Shown here: piece by piece, positions 1,327 to 11,273 of the stretch
How the letters are laid out: every line of letters starts with the position of its first letter
Position numbering within the stretch: the stretch's first letter is position 1
Assembly: GCA_964507075.1 (NCBI GenBank)
Contig: CAZDOL010000010.1
Location: 12,095 to 24,195 of the forward strand
Direction: 5' to 3'
Origin: an uncultured Gammaproteobacteria bacterium
Lineage (GTDB): Bacteria; Patescibacteriota; Patescibacteriia; UBA2591; UBA6264
Length of the DNA: 12,101 nt
Position numbers and translations under genes: made by a program
The notes under the pieces: generated by a model
The model's input: the letters and a program-made list of their open reading frames with translations, nothing else
The model's database searches: none
What the model was told of the DNA's origin: nothing

Positions 1327-1935
1327 TTAAATCATTGTTTGACTTTTGATAAATTCTGGCTGTTTTTCTTCCCAAGAATCAATGTTGCTTTTTACAAAAT
1401 CTACATATTCTTGACGCGCTTGTTCTAAATTCGCAACACCAGTATAAGATAAAAATTTATCTCTATCTATCAAATCATCATCGTATATTCTTTGACTATA
1501 AATTGAAAAACTGCTCCAACGATAATCCTCTGGGATGCTGACTATCTTCGCGCGAACTGCGTTTAAATCAATATAACATCCAACTGTCCAAAAATATTTT
1601 TCCTTATCAATTATGCTACTGTAAAATCTGTCTTGAAAAACATGACCAGAGCGATGATAGCGATGATTAAAATAAATCGCATATAAAAAATTAACTCGTC
1701 CCATAATTTTTGAAAGAGAATCTTGGCGTGTCTCAATAAGTAAATGAAAATGATTCGGCAAAAAATTATAAGAATAGAAATAAAACTGCAATTCTTTTTT
1801 TACTTTTCTAAGAATGCTCAATAATTTTTTGTAATCGCGAACGCTCAAAAAAATCCTTTTCTGATTATTTCCACGACAAACGATATGATAAATCGTTTCG
1901 TTTTGATCAATATATTCACGTGCTTTTCTTGGCAT
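1327..1935 (-). CDS. HUH Y1 transposase of the IS200-like / REP-associated tyrosine transposase (RAYT) type.
   Basis: 202-aa ORF, ATG to TAA. HUH motif at H62-F-H64 (LPNHFHLLIE). GHVFQDRF block. YIDLNAVRAKIV (Y121) followed by YRWSS (138-142), resembling the YIxxNPVRAGLV...YxWSS C-terminal signature of RAYT/TnpA_REP proteins. Flanked by inverted palindromes. Confidence 0.8.
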   Translation of the reverse strand: MPRKAREYIDQNETIYHIVCRGNNQKRIFLSVRDYKKLLSILRKVKKELQFYFYSYNFLPNHFHLLIETRQDSLSKIMGRVNFLYAIYFNHRYHRSGHVFQDRFYSSIIDKEKYFWTVGCYIDLNAVRAKIVSIPEDYRWSSFSIYSQRIYDDDLIDRDKFLSYTGVANLEQARQEYVDFVKSNIDSWEEKQPEFIKSQTMI

Positions 1936-3299: not shown

Positions 3300-3337
3300 G
3301 GGGACAGTCCCCTAAAAAATTAGTCCCCTAAAAAATT
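3300..3337 (+). repeat. Palindrome GGGGACAGTCCCC (3300-3312), overlapping a perfect 16-bp tandem duplication AGTCCCCTAAAAAATT x2 (3306-3321 and 3322-3337).
   Basis: Read directly from the sequence. The duplication ends 1 nt before the valS ATG (3339). Confidence 0.9.
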
Positions 3338-3338
3338 T

Positions 3339-5735
3339 ATGGAAAAAACATACGAAGCAAAACAATTTGAAGAAAAAATCTATAAGCTTTGGAAAGAAAG
3401 CGAATTTTTTAATCCTGATAAATTGCCAGGAAAAAGAAAAGAAAAATATTCTATTACCATTCCCCCGCCAAATATAACGGGGTCTTTGCATATCGGACAC
3501 GCTCTTAATAATACGATTCAAGATATATTAATTAGATATCACCGCATGCTGGGAGACAAAACGCTATGGTTGCCAGGGACAGATCATGCTGGAATTGCTA
3601 CTCAGAATGTAGTAGAAAAAGAATTAAGCAAAAATGGGTTAACACGTCATCAATTAGGAAGAGAAAATTTTGTTAAAACTGTCTGGCAATGGAAAGAAAA
3701 ATATGGCAATTTAATTATCAAACAATTAGAAAAATTGGGGTGTTCTTGTGATTGGTCCAGATTACGATTCACCTTAGATGAGAAATACAAAGAAGCTGTC
3801 TTAACTGCTTTTACTAATTATCACAAAAAAGGATACATCTATCGTGGTCCCAGAATTGTAAATTGGTGTCCAAGATGTGAAACTGCCATCTCTGACATTG
3901 AAATCAAATATAAAGAAAGCATAGGTAAATTATGGTACATAAAATACCCTCTATCCAAAAATCCGAAATCCGAAACCCTAAATTCTAAACAAATTCAAAA
4001 TTCCAAACCTAAAATTCCAAACTTTATAGTTGTTGCTACCACTCGCCCAGAAACAATGTTGGGTGACACGGCGATAGCAGTTAACCCTAAAGACAAAAAA
4101 TACAAAGATTTTATAGGACAAAAAGTGATAATTCCTGTTGTTCAAAGGGAAATTCCTATTGTAGCTCATCATTTAGTTAAAATGGAATTTGGAACTGGCG
4201 CCGTAAAAATTACTCCTGCTCATGACAAAACTGATTGGCAAATCGGCAAAGCCAATAATCTACCAATTATTAATGTAATCGGCCCCAAGGGAAAAATGAC
4301 AGCAGAAGCTGGCAAATATGCTAATCTTTCTACAAAAGAAGCCAGAAAACAAATCATAATTGAATTAGAAAAACTAAATCTCTTAGAAAAAACCGAAAAT
4401 CACGAACACCAGGTTTCTCTTTGCGACCGTTGTGGCACCCCAATTGAACCTCAAATTTCTACCCAATGGTTTGTGAAAATGAAAGAGTTAGCAAAACCAG
4501 CCATAACCAGCGTCAAAAATGATAAAATCAAAATTATTCCCAAGCGATACAAAAAAGTCTATTTGGATTGGATGAATAATTTAGAAGATTGGTGTATTTC
4601 CCGACAACTTTGGTGGGGACATCAGCTTCCTGTTTGGTTTTGCGAAAACCAAAAAGACAAATTTATTGTTTCTATTACTCCACCCCCTTCTTGTCCCTAT
4701 TGCAAAAAATGCCAAATGAAACAATCCTCAGATGTTTTGGATACCTGGTTTTCGTCAGCCCTTTGGCCCTTTGCTACATTGGGTTGGCCTGAAAAAACCA
4801 AAGACCTGAAAGAATATTATCCTACCTCCATACTTTCCACAGCCAGAGACATCTTATATCTTTGGGTAGCCAGAATGGTATTCTCGGGATTTGAATTTAT
4901 GGGGAAAATACCCTTCCAAACTGTCTATATTCACGGAACCATTCTTACTTTAGAAGGAAAAAGAATGAGCAAATCCCTAGGAACTGGAGTTAATCCCTTA
5001 GGGTTTATGGACCAATATGGTGCAGACGCGACCCGTTTAGGAATTATACTTCAATCCAATAGAGACCAGCAAGAAATTCGTTTTGATTCTCGTGCCATTC
5101 TAGCAGCCCGCAATTTCATTAACAAGCTTTGGAACATTTCTAGATTTGTAAAACTTATAAATCAAGAAATTCCAAGGACAGAAATGAAAAAGCCAACCGT
5201 TGCTGACCAATGGATACTCTCTAAGATAAATAATCTTATTAATTCCGTTACCCAAAAAATCAAAAACAATGAATTAAGTTTAGCAGCTAAAGAGCTTTAT
5301 GAATTTGTTTGGCATGATTTTGCTGATTGGTATTTAGAAATAGCAAAATTCCAGAAAGACAATTTAAAAACAAAAAAACAAACCTCTGGTCTGCTCAGAA
5401 TGATTTTAGAAAAATGCCTTAAAATGCTCCACCCCTTTATTCCTTTTGTTACGGAAACGATTAATATTCAATTAAATAAAATAGGGGACAAAGAATTCTC
5501 TGATTTACTAATTGTAGCTGAATGGCCTCAAACCGATAAAAAAATGATTAATTCTCAAATTGAAAAAGAATTTGAAAAAATTAAAAACTTGGTTACAGAA
5601 ATAAGAAACTGGCGAAAAAAAGAAAAAATAGAGCCTCGAGAAATTATTATCTTGCCAAATATATTTAAAAATAAACTCCTAAAATTCAAACCAGAATATC
5701 AAAAAATCATCAAGCAATTATCTAAAATTAAGTAA
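3339..5735 (+). CDS. valS: Valine--tRNA ligase.
   Basis: 798-aa ORF. HIGH motif (SLHIGHALN), TTRPETMLGDTAIAVNP, DTWFSSALWPF, and KMSKS-type RMSKS. It is shorter than E. coli-type ValRS at the C-terminus. Confidence 0.95.
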   Translation: MEKTYEAKQFEEKIYKLWKESEFFNPDKLPGKRKEKYSITIPPPNITGSLHIGHALNNTIQDILIRYHRMLGDKTLWLPGTDHAGIATQNVVEKELSKNGLTRHQLGRENFVKTVWQWKEKYGNLIIKQLEKLGCSCDWSRLRFTLDEKYKEAVLTAFTNYHKKGYIYRGPRIVNWCPRCETAISDIEIKYKESIGKLWYIKYPLSKNPKSETLNSKQIQNSKPKIPNFIVVATTRPETMLGDTAIAVNPKDKKYKDFIGQKVIIPVVQREIPIVAHHLVKMEFGTGAVKITPAHDKTDWQIGKANNLPIINVIGPKGKMTAEAGKYANLSTKEARKQIIIELEKLNLLEKTENHEHQVSLCDRCGTPIEPQISTQWFVKMKELAKPAITSVKNDKIKIIPKRYKKVYLDWMNNLEDWCISRQLWWGHQLPVWFCENQKDKFIVSITPPPSCPYCKKCQMKQSSDVLDTWFSSALWPFATLGWPEKTKDLKEYYPTSILSTARDILYLWVARMVFSGFEFMGKIPFQTVYIHGTILTLEGKRMSKSLGTGVNPLGFMDQYGADATRLGIILQSNRDQQEIRFDSRAILAARNFINKLWNISRFVKLINQEIPRTEMKKPTVADQWILSKINNLINSVTQKIKNNELSLAAKELYEFVWHDFADWYLEIAKFQKDNLKTKKQTSGLLRMILEKCLKMLHPFIPFVTETINIQLNKIGDKEFSDLLIVAEWPQTDKKMINSQIEKEFEKIKNLVTEIRNWRKKEKIEPREIIILPNIFKNKLLKFKPEYQKIIKQLSKIK

Positions 5736-8535: not shown

Positions 8536-8591
8536 ACCCTGTTAAATAAAATCTTCGATTTTAATTTGCTTTGCAAATTATTTAACAGGGT
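8536..8591 (+). repeat. Repeat family B, copy B1: a 56-nt hairpin element.
   Basis: ACCCTGTTAAATAA (8536-8549) pairs perfectly with TTATTTAACAGGGT (8578-8591). An inner TTTGC/GCAAA stem surrounds TTT. It is 54/56 identical to 11218-11273, and looser homology extends to about 8515-8645. Confidence 0.9.
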
Positions 8592-10264: not shown

Positions 10265-10549
10265 ATGGCTTTACCAACACAAAAAAGATCAAAATCTCGT
10301 CAAAAACGGAGACAATATCAATATCGCCTCAAAAAAATATATTTATCTATTTGCCCTAAATGCAAAAAACCAAAACAGTCTCATCAGGCATGTCCTTTTT
10401 GCGGAACATATATGGGCAAAGAAATAATAAAACTAAAAACTAAAAAAAAGGATAAAAAGATGAACAAAGAGACAAAAAATCAGAAAGATAAAAAAGAAAA
10501 AAAGATTGAGAAAAAAGAAAAAGATAAAAAAGAAAAAAAGAAAAAATAG
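10265..10549 (+). CDS. rpmF: 50S ribosomal protein L32 (zinc-ribbon form) with a long Lys/Glu/Asp-rich C-terminal tail.
   Basis: N-terminal MALPTQKRSKSRQKRR and CPKC-x11-CPFC match bL32. Residues ~56-94 are KLKTKKKDKKMNKETKNQKDKKEKKIEKKEKDKKEKKKK. Confidence 0.9.
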   Translation: MALPTQKRSKSRQKRRQYQYRLKKIYLSICPKCKKPKQSHQACPFCGTYMGKEIIKLKTKKKDKKMNKETKNQKDKKEKKIEKKEKDKKEKKKK

Positions 10550-10557
10550 GTATTTAG

Positions 10558-10615
10558 GTAATCGGGTAATCGGGATACCCAATCCCCAATCCCTAATTAA
10601 CCAATTAACCAACTA
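10558..10615 (+). repeat. Run of short tandem repeats in the rpmF-nusB spacer.
   Basis: GTAATCGG x2 (10558-10573), then CCCAATCCCCAATCCC, then AATTAACC x2 and AAC. Read directly from the sequence. Confidence 0.8.
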
Positions 10616-10617
10616 AT

Positions 10618-11199
10618 ATGTCTCAAAGACGCTTAGCTCGCACTATGACTTTGCAGGTTTTGAGTGAATGGGATTTCAACAAATCTATGATTTTTAAGGA
10701 TGTTGATATACAAGAAATCATTCAACGCAACCTTAAAGAATTCTCCTCACTGCATCCCTTGACTTCCCGCCCGCCTTTGACTGAGCCAAAAGCGATGTCG
10801 GGCGTGGCTCGTCTGTCTTTGACTGAGCCAAAAGCGACATCAAACAGGTCGTCAAAGCGAAATCAAATAGGTTCTGATTTTCAAGAAAAACTTTTTTTTA
10901 AACAATTGGTTCAAAATATTTTAAAAAATATTAAAAAAATTGATTCTTTTATTATACAATACGCTCCTCAGTGGCCTATTGAAAAAATAACTCTCGTGGA
11001 CAGGAACATTTTAAGAATAGGGGTATTTGAACTACTAATCTCTGCCCAAACTCCTCCGAAGGTTATCATTAACGAGGCCATAGAAATAGCTAAATTATTT
11101 GGCAGTGAAACATCCAGTAAATTTATTAATGGTGTGTTGGGGGCTATTTATGAAAAAATGAAGGACTTTGCCCAAAATTCTGAGGCAAAGCCGAAATAA
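10618..11199 (+). CDS. nusB: Transcription antitermination factor NusB carrying an internal insertion of ~40 aa.
   Basis: 193-aa ORF. N-terminal RRLARTMTLQVL. C-terminal half has NILRIGVFELL, VIINEAIEIAKLFG and KFINGVLG, typical of NusB. Residues ~43-85 have no counterpart in the ~140-aa canonical protein. Confidence 0.9.
   Translation: MSQRRLARTMTLQVLSEWDFNKSMIFKDVDIQEIIQRNLKEFSSLHPLTSRPPLTEPKAMSGVARLSLTEPKATSNRSSKRNQIGSDFQEKLFFKQLVQNILKNIKKIDSFIIQYAPQWPIEKITLVDRNILRIGVFELLISAQTPPKVIINEAIEIAKLFGSETSSKFINGVLGAIYEKMKDFAQNSEAKPK
10756..10858 (+). repeat. GC-rich intragenic repeat block inside nusB.
   Basis: A perfect 21-nt direct repeat CTTTGACTGAGCCAAAAGCGA at 10775-10795 and 10817-10837. 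The 42-nt period equals 14 codons (LTEPKA...LTEPKA). A partial third copy CTTGACT lies at 10758-10764. Internal complementarity: GATGTCG (10794-10800) with CGACATC (10835-10841), GGCTC with GAGCC, and CTTTGAC with GTCAAAG. Confidence 0.85.
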
Positions 11200-11217: not shown

Positions 11218-11273
11218 ACCCTGTTAAATAAAATCTACGATTTTAATTTGCTTCGCAAATTATTTAACAGGGT
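11218..11273 (+). repeat. Repeat family B, copy B2: a 56-nt hairpin element.
   Basis: Identical to 8536-8591 except T>A at 11237 (an unpaired bulge) and T>C at 11254 (the apical loop). Both stems are fully conserved. Flanking homology extends to about 11205-11333. Confidence 0.9.

Follow-up and report, generated by a model that had tools for sequence, protein, structure and literature searches.

A short GC-rich palindromic element, probably of selfish origin, inserted in frame in the nusB gene of a patescibacterium

To our knowledge, selfish DNA inside essential protein genes is known from very few systems, namely the Rickettsia palindromic elements (RPEs) and the GC clusters of yeast mitochondrial VAR1. 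RPEs measure ~100-150 bp, and each family corresponds to a conserved peptide in one frame. Repetitive extragenic palindromes (REPs) are extragenic by definition and usually number hundreds per genome, while transposable elements of the miniature inverted-repeat kind (MITEs) carry terminal inverted repeats together with target-site duplications and typically span 50-500 bp. Among organellar repeats, the double-hairpin elements of Allomyces mitochondria are comparable GC-rich palindromes, and older literature reports target preferences for GC clusters. Rickettsia conorii holds 44 RPE insertions, nearly half of them within open reading frames (ORFs) (Ogata et al. 2000, 2002, in the summary given by PMC10969869), and yeast GC clusters lie mostly in spacers and also in frame in VAR1/rps3, where they alter product size (PMC4464245). 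Here we analyze a GC-rich block within nusB on a 12,101-nt stretch of contig CAZDOL010000010.1 (hereafter, the window) from an uncultured member of the Patescibacteria, which an initial annotation had likened to an RPE-style palindromic element inserted in frame.

Our findings indicate that this block is likely a fossil of selfish repeated DNA and not a designed part of NusB. The RPE-style reading is supported in that the block belongs to a dispersed, in-frame palindrome; membership in the Rickettsia RPE families themselves is not, the element being far shorter and in another phylum. More tentatively, the family may amount to a superfamily of ultra-short (36-42 nt) GC-rich hairpins spread throughout the Candidate Phyla Radiation (CPR), which would insert without target-site duplication into AT-rich spacers, each other's loops and surface loops of essential proteins, and would remain near-identical across phylum-level lineages; this wider proposal we rate as just short of probable. 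A literature search including DNA and peptide strings, with most subscription journals outside its coverage, found no such elements in CPR/Patescibacteria, and the family appears to be undescribed.

An in-frame insertion in nusB that varies among relatives

The gene hosting the block is a bona fide nusB. Its product scores above the curated cutoffs of both Pfam PF01029 (112.3 bits against 23.1; E 2.9e-32) and TIGR01951 (121 bits against 88.35; E 3.9e-35), NusB chains in the PDB align to its residues 90-181 (E 2e-19), and AlphaFold returns a confident, all-helical NusB fold of seven helices, with pLDDT mostly >90 outside the insert. The nearest NusB proteins carry Parcubacteria or Patescibacteria annotation, which places the organism within the CPR. 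The window is AT-rich (32.8% GC overall), and GC content in sliding 100-nt segments peaks at 56% over 10750-10849 against 20-37% on both sides. The block had first been placed at 10745-10865; its GC richness is confirmed (52.8% over the 123-nt insert, 32.7% in the remainder of nusB), but its exact ends are not, since alignment with insert-free alleles gives slightly wider limits (Table 1). The peptide quoted in the initial annotation is the correct translation.

The insertion was defined by protein alignments of NusB with the 23 closest sequences and then with the 120 best matches, followed by comparison of the encoding contigs at the DNA level (loci of relatives are denoted by L numbers and proteins by P numbers). 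At the insert site, 113 of the 120 proteins have a fixed stretch of 16-18 residues (NLKEF..FFK). Extra residues occur only in P0001-P0007, with 41 in P0001-P0002, 27-29 in P0003-P0005 and 12 in P0006-P0007; genomes whose flanks share 81-90% identity thus differ at this site, with inserts of 0, 12, 27-29 or 41 residues. The insertion is clean, and the empty alleles are scarless in the DNA alignment, reading GAATTCTCGTC up to the insertion point and TTCTAATTTT beyond it in L013/L014. L016, L007 and L010 carry an insert of ~80-90 nt without the 42-nt duplication of the window, and L015 has a different 36-nt GC-rich sequence, termed B below, at exactly the same position. The possibility of a chimeric assembly had also been raised. 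However, 23 contigs in independent assemblies (JGI, ENA and Logan) of different samples all encode exactly this 193-aa protein, so the junctions are real; related alleles are also present in metagenome-assembled genomes (MAGs) at NCBI. An assembly or sequencing artefact, in favor of which we found no point, is thus extremely improbable.

In the AlphaFold model, pLDDT falls below 50 solely at residues 46-85, between the helices at 31-43 and 91-103, and solved NusB chains pick up the alignment again at their residue 44-46. Together, these data put the insert in the loop between helices 2 and 3, as had been anticipated for a surface loop, and the model predicts this loop to be disordered.

The insert is a composite. 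It comprises a near-intact 42-nt core of a type that we call A and a second unit derived from it by tandem duplication, both enclosed by decayed outer arms. The core is identical to the A consensus at 41 of 42 bases, and the lone G>A change disrupts one stem pair. The second unit is present in the window and L017, missing in L016, L007 and L010, and strongly decayed toward A/T (CGCCCGCC to CGTCTGTC; TGTCGGGCG to CATCAAACA); C>T and G>A changes have accumulated in it and in both outer arms. In relatives, the outer 5' arm reads ACCGCCCGCCTTAACTT, a second copy of the family 5' motif CCGCCCGCCTT, and the outer 3' arm resembles the 3' arm of B, GCGAAGCGGGCAGG. The internal repetition described initially was recovered in full: a 28-nt direct repeat pair (89% identity, period 42) includes the perfect 21-mer CTTTGACTGAGCCAAAAGCGA, a partial third copy (CCCTTGACT) occurs at 10756-10764, and the listed complementary segments (GATGTCG/CGACATC, GGCTC/GAGCC, CTTTGAC/GTCAAAG) are all present. 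The two-copy repeat arose in none of 200 shuffles, and shorter periodicities of 18 and 23 nt also exist in the block.

Self-complementarity of the window copy calls for a distinction. The complementary segments are there and the family consensus folds, the A consensus reaching -11.2 kcal/mol as DNA (z -2.9; matched by 0/200 shuffles), whereas the window copy does not fold significantly better than shuffles. As DNA, its core is weakened by the G>A change to -7.0 kcal/mol (z -1.0) and its second unit yields -4.4 kcal/mol (z -0.8); the whole block folded as RNA (-37.7 kcal/mol, z -1.6) was equaled by 13 of 200 shuffles and is not significant.

Trees of dnaA, rnc and smc agree on ((window/L017, L015, L010), (L013/L014, (L007, L016))), the order inside the first clade varying by gene. 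The empty L013/L014 are sister to the filled L007/L016, and both L015, with B only, and L010 group with the window. Since empty, filled and B states are scattered over these trees, the site has more than once acquired, swapped or precisely lost its insert. In their C-terminal tails, the NusB proteins conflict with the species tree, and recombination between lineages may have contributed to the pattern. In L016, L007 and L010, the insert consists of CCGCCCGCCTT followed by A/GACTT, an intact A core (in L010 the TC loop variant, which is found elsewhere in the family too) and, at the 3' end, a tail (CGTCAAAGCGAAGTCGGGCAGG) similar to the 3' arm found in A or B. Judged from its sequence, this arrangement would represent an older member of the family whose arms enclose an A core, the junction coinciding with the loop position at which B lies in L055.

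Related hairpins in other genes and lineages

The exact 21-mer of the window had no match in contigs of the GTDB genome collection, the relatives having CAAAGGC for the CAAAAGC of the window. A degenerate 22-nt pattern derived from the window core, CCTTTGACTNNGCCAAARGCGA, returned 15 matches in this collection, 11 on contigs of CPR MAGs and four on high-GC, non-CPR contigs. Among the CPR contigs, a single Berkelbacteria MAG contributes three and a single Paceibacterales MAG two; others come from, e.g., one Portnoybacteria MAG and two Saccharibacteria-labelled MAGs. All 11 share an extended core, CCCGCCCGCCTTTGACT(GA or TC)GCCAAAGGCGATGTCGGGCG.GG, which is found in none of the four non-CPR matches, and they agree over 8 nt upstream and ~13 nt downstream beyond the search pattern. 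The search for further nucleotide copies, as the initial annotation had advised, was therefore successful. A also occurs in frame and in reverse orientation within trigger factor (tig) and DnaX; trigger factor is 305 aa in its filled form versus 291 aa in empty, 92%-identical relatives, a difference of exactly 14 residues or 42 nt. A blastn-short search of the first 17 loci (~200 kb) with the insert gave no second A copy and one marginal 22-nt match. Exact-match scans found 1-3 copies per MAG, a lower bound on copy number.

The marginal 22-nt blastn match mentioned above pairs the L015 nusB insert with the dnaA-rpmF spacer of L007 and drew attention to the B element. Compared with L013, whose flanks are identical, the L007 spacer contains a clean, GC-rich insertion of 35 nt, and 30 of 36 bases match the L015 insert. 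Scanning a metagenome collection with the 21-mer common to both copies, CCGCCCGYCTTGCYTCGCAAC, produced 86 matches, ~80 of which continue into the same 3' half outside the search pattern and thus define a 36-nt unit, CCCGCCCGCCTTGCTTCGCAACGCGAAGCGGGCAGG, identical over 36 nt in 66 of 80 copies. Five high-GC matches lacking the 3' half were dismissed as chance. A and B have the first 12 bases in common and similar 3' arms and are related members of one superfamily, in which two members (42-nt A and 36-nt B) and a 5' motif (CCCGCCCGCCTT) are so far defined. The B consensus folds as DNA at -12.2 kcal/mol (z -2.0).

Many copies reside in spacers adjoining genes. When intragenic sites are required to have at least 70 stop-free codons on both sides, 18 of the 62 unique B sites (~29%) lie inside ORFs. 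At each of the 18, the frames on either side of the element agree, with no out-of-frame case and no stop within the element in the frame used. Hosts with Pfam domain matches on both sides of B encode AspRS, TsaD, FolD, GatA, RNase HII, MiaA, a MurC-like ligase and a P-type ATPase; trigger factor and DnaX are likewise matched by Pfam on either side of A. Filled AspRS has 481 aa versus 469 aa in empty, 88%-identical relatives, i.e., 12 residues or 36 nt, and the L015 nusB differs from the L013/L014 allele by 36 nt. In all four filled/empty comparisons, the insertion is a clean unit, with no target-site duplication. Because B is translated in six frames (PARLASQREAGR, PPALLRNAKRAG, RPPCFATRSGQ and three reverse) and in both orientations, no particular peptide is under selection; peptides encoded across elements include LTEPKAMSGVAR (nusB), TEPKAMSGVAR and PARLASQREAGR. 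We considered six open frames as evidence of design and rejected the idea: 36% of composition-matched B shuffles are equally open, and A has only 4-5 open frames.

The elements also enter one another. In L055, the loop of an A element is split precisely after ACT and before TCGCC by a B unit, without duplication. B units stand in tandem in L091, and several B copies lie within other GC hairpins; a regular-expression search for further nested (split) A/B copies found only L055 besides nusB. An Rfam 15 gathering scan of the window and 12 element-bearing loci detected tRNA/tmRNA only and nothing on the elements. Neither A nor B had a copy in 2.9 million viral contigs, which provides no sign of a phage vector.

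Several B hosts show additional peculiarities. The AspRS site of B holds other short inserts in other lineages (PPSAKASEGKG, PSFAKASEGEGKRLAGRSSESEG and PSTSSGQGKG in P0210, P0230 and P0236), and a MurC-like ORF in L052 contains several elements combined into a composite of ~50 residues, with a repeated GKLEI on its flanks. Some protein loops appear to be hot spots for different element types. L030 (contig Ga0315282_10019711) has an ORF of at least 1558 aa for a giant repetitive surface-type protein with a B element; the segment just downstream of B resembles, on inspection of its sequence, a Hint/intein domain (ending ...GIIAHNT).

Comparison with described repeats, origin and alternatives

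The A/B family is not RPE, REP or MITE in the strict sense. Like RPEs, A and B are palindromes dispersed in a host-dependent bacterium with a reduced, AT-rich genome. Both kinds of element lie in frame in unrelated housekeeping genes and are translated where the fold tolerates them (PMC10969869), here in nusB, tig, dnaX, aspS, tsaD, folD, gatA, rnhB, miaA, a murC-like gene and a P-type ATPase gene. A and B differ from RPEs in that they are 36-42 nt long and read in up to six frames with no conserved peptide, nest in each other's loops, reside in Patescibacteria, as judged by MAG record names and protein matches, and are near-identical across phylum-level lineages. Length, peptide and host therefore set them apart. 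Yeast GC clusters, i.e., 30-80-bp GC-rich palindromes of a very AT-rich genome that form consensus classes and occur singly and in tandem (PMC4464245), are the closest match in size, composition contrast and behavior, with no homology claimed. A and B parallel them in size and composition, in the tandem B-B of L091, in the B inside A of L055 and in their in-frame copies. GC clusters are nevertheless organellar and eukaryotic, with one protein-coding target versus at least a dozen housekeeping genes here, and have no apparent sequence relationship to A/B. REPs and REPINs are likewise imperfect, bulged, GC-rich palindromes of 20-40 nt with neither further terminal inverted repeats nor target-site duplication. 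In contrast to REPs, ~29% of unique B sites are in ORFs, observed copy number (a lower bound) is low, and no cognate RAYT transposase gene flanked by A/B palindromes was found. MITEs such as Correia, ERIC, RUP and Nezha are small non-autonomous repeats that also enter genes and create in-frame fusions (PMC10969869). The 36-42-nt A/B units differ from them, having clean insertions of 35-36 and 42 nt without flank duplication.

The history of the locus can be envisaged as follows. A short, GC-rich, imperfect palindrome would have entered the helix 2-3 loop of NusB in an organism recently ancestral to a small, AT-rich clade of Patescibacteria. Since the units are multiples of three and mostly stop-free, insertion keeps the reading frame, and the element would simply have been translated as a flexible surface loop that NusB tolerates. 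Turnover at the site would then have left one relative with B only, three with an intact A core between the arms of an older copy and one sister lineage empty. A further 42-nt tandem duplication in the window lineage was probably due to slippage between repeated arms, and the outer arms and second unit are decaying to A/T, presumably under the mutational bias of the genome. The window copy is probably immobile now because its core has lost one stem pair. We infer that the family is mobile, spreading by copying and insertion instead of being created time and again, and that functionally the NusB loop is neutral. The family's hairpin dependence, insertion into hairpin loops and lack of duplication, which recall HUH/Y1 systems such as IS200/IS605 and REP/RAYT, suggest by analogy that it may move as a folded single-stranded hairpin, possibly mobilized by a trans-acting enzyme such as an HUH/Y1 transposase.

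Other explanations would dispense with selfish DNA. Selection may have repeatedly placed the hairpins as functional nucleic-acid signals (for binding or processing, RNA stability, RNase III, or uptake/recombination), the nusB copy then acting at the RNA or DNA level. The extreme conservation of the 36/42-nt units across distant CPR lineages, consensus folds better than those of shuffles, the many copies in gene-adjacent spacers and, for the RNase III variant, the location of rnc directly downstream of nusB fit this idea. Nonetheless, we deem it unlikely: the elements occur in both orientations with respect to the host gene and in all reading frames, nest inside one another, and are clean all-or-none insertions instead of products of gradual point mutation; moreover, the window copy is short of one stem pair and its duplicate is decaying, no Rfam family matches, and density looks low, at about one exact copy per 8-15-kb locus. 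Also disfavored is the alternative offered in the initial annotation, i.e., a lineage-specific functional extension of NusB in the form of a basic, proline-rich loop selected for a protein role. The same nucleotides recur in unrelated genes, in both orientations, several frames and spacers, and when reversed give unrelated peptides in trigger factor and DnaX; insert length varies from none to 41 residues among closely similar genomes; the loop is predicted to be disordered; and G>A and C>T changes point to decay rather than conservation of the outer arms and second unit. In favor of such an extension are preservation of the frame, persistence of the insert in several related lineages and on 23 contigs, and the contacts of the host transcription factor with RNA and NusE; we consider it quite improbable.

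Local origin by replication slippage or duplication of nusB, with nothing imported, would account for the second unit only, even though the 42-nt duplication, the 18- and 23-nt periodicities and the AT-rich tandem heptamers common in the window genome agree with it. Slippage cannot yield 53% GC from flanks with 33% GC, nor the 41/42 identity to hairpins in Berkelbacteria, Portnoybacteria, Paceibacterales and others, and we regard this scenario as very improbable. It is also hardly to be expected that the element escapes translation, either cut from the transcript or skipped by the ribosome in the manner of the mitochondrial 'byp' elements derived from GC clusters. CPR bacteria are known for unusual intervening sequences in their rRNA genes, which counts for such removal or bypass, but the flanking frames are in register with no in-frame stop at 18/18 intragenic B sites, and removal would make the frame preservation afforded by 36- and 42-nt units needless. 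None of the outcomes named beforehand as telling against a palindromic element, namely protein-level conservation with synonymous drift, lack of other copies or unsupported junctions, was encountered.

The reading of the nusB block as a relic of selfish DNA has to accommodate several observations that weigh against it. The ~40 kb of the window's own genome that could be recovered yielded no further copy of A or B, within-genome multiplicity being seen only in other CPR genomes. No transposase or other mobilizing function was linked to A/B elements, and a tblastn search with the RAYT-like protein of the window against ~750 kb of element-bearing loci gave self matches only. Our scans needed exact matches, which makes conservation of the pattern part a matter of construction and leaves diverged copies uncounted. 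The structure model is silent on any effect of the loop on NusE or RNA binding. Finally, near-identity of a 36-42-nt sequence across phylum-level lineages is odd for neutral junk and could reflect a conserved cellular function. Neutral decay does not account for it, and it argues for strong constraint by a recognition machinery, frequent horizontal spread or such a function, the last of which we consider unlikely; the nusB copy itself is a decaying fossil of modest functional importance.

Neighboring repeats and implications for the Candidate Phyla Radiation

The window orders dnaA (minus strand), rpmF, nusB and rnc, with leuS, tsaE, a gene for a type II/IV secretion ATPase and a Y1-transposase-like ORF farther upstream (Table 1). 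This last ORF is RAYT-like, its best match being REP-associated tyrosine transposase, and a 13-nt palindrome, GGGGACWGTCCCC, lies on either side of it, with a third copy after tsaE. Three points argue against it as the A/B mobilizer: its flanks carry GGGGACWGTCCCC and not A/B, the gene is missing from the syntenic L007 and L010, which carry the nusB insert, and no homologue lies near other copies.

Table 1. Coordinates of the insert, its parts and other repeats and genes in the window and related loci
Feature	Position	Strand	Size or content	Basis
nusB coding sequence, insert host	10618-11199	+	193 aa	ORF list, Pfam, TIGRFAM
Whole insert versus empty allele	10749-10871	+	123 nt, 41 codons, residues ~44-85	DNA alignment with insert-free L013/L014
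Decayed outer 5' arm	10749-10765	+	ACTGCATCCCTTGACTT	DNA alignment, A/B consensus comparison
Near-intact A-type core	10766-10807	+	42 nt; CCCGCCCGCCTTTGACTGAGCCAAAAGCGATGTCGGGCGTGG	Genome-collection matches and flanks, folding
Second unit of 42-nt tandem duplication	10810-10849	+		Repeat search, DNA alignment, folding
Decayed outer 3' arm	10850-10871	+	CGTCAAAGCGAAATCAAATAGG	DNA alignment, B consensus
Direct repeat copy 1	10768-10795	+	Includes perfect 21-mer 10775-10795	
Direct repeat copy 2	10810-10837	+	Includes perfect 21-mer 10817-10837; 42 nt downstream of copy 1	
RAYT-like Y1 transposase ORF	1327-1935	-	202 aa	NF047646, E 4.9e-19, 68.7 bits, below cutoff 80
13-nt palindrome GGGGACWGTCCCC	1227-1239, 2040-2052, 3300-3312			
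Second palindromic family	Window 11219-11272, 8537-8590; L001 20237-20292; L013 16608-16663; L119 14488-14537		~54 nt	
AT-rich 7-8-mer tandem arrays	3959-4022 (in leuS), 10557-10616 (upstream of nusB)			
CCTGCCTACCGGCAGGCAGG(C) and other small GC hairpins	L007 9366-9400, 9540-9562, 9897-9989, 14680-14731; L010 9932-9978; L015 280-314			
LeuRS	Window 3339-5735; L010 2214-5087; L014 2309-5182		798 aa (window); 957 aa (L010, L014)	
Tandem repeat at rpmF 3' end	10444-10546		A-rich, period ~8-45 nt	

The genome of the window contains a second palindromic family of the form ACCCTGTTAAAT-[hairpin 1]-[hairpin 2]-ATTTAACAGGGT, with 12-nt terminal inverted repeats and internal hairpins that differ between copies yet remain paired. 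One copy lies directly downstream of nusB and another in frame inside tsaD (peptide VHPVKSRKAGSPTAKFNRG). The hairpin CCTGCCTACCGGCAGGCAGG(C) recurs on the upstream side of nusB in three relatives, with L007 having it in another spacer as well, and further small GC hairpins form clean insertions in the L007 dnaA-rpmF spacer; the window has none of these.

AT-rich 7-8-mer tandem arrays have units AAATCCG and AAATTCC in one case and GGTAATCG, CCCAATC and AATTAACC in the other, the leuS array being in frame (KNPKSETLNSKQIQNSKPKIPNF). Similar heptamers, usually two per side, adjoin many B elements (e.g., L030, L038, L043, L057, L062 and L075), and some B copies lie next to 13-15-nt direct repeats that consist of two such heptamers. 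We discarded them as 14-nt target-site duplications, given that 36+14 nt would break the frame and that arrays exist without B in leuS of the window and tsaD of L025. Two neighboring genes also vary in length. The longer LeuRS of L010 and L014 has an embedded match to His_Phos_1 (histidine phosphatase), and the L32 protein encoded by rpmF has a variable lysine/glutamate-rich tail from its tandem repeat and ranges from 80 to 103 aa across relatives.

To conclude, the presence of selfish DNA inside essential protein genes probably extends to the CPR, with elements three to four times shorter than RPEs that hit core information-processing genes (nusB, aspS, tsaD, dnaX, tig, gatA and rnhB). Annotators should not read GC-rich in-frame blocks in AT-rich CPR genes as functional domains. 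Should the family prove as common as our scans indicate, it would account for many lineage-specific loops of CPR proteins, supply filled and empty sites as natural markers for the population genetics of uncultivated bacteria at strain level, and point to a mobilization mechanism by which a sequence of 36-42 nt stays nearly invariant across phyla. A superfamily truly spanning the CPR would mean that an active, sequence-specific and probably single-strand-hairpin-based machinery is shared or exchanged among Patescibacteria and serves as a general source of extra loops in their proteins.

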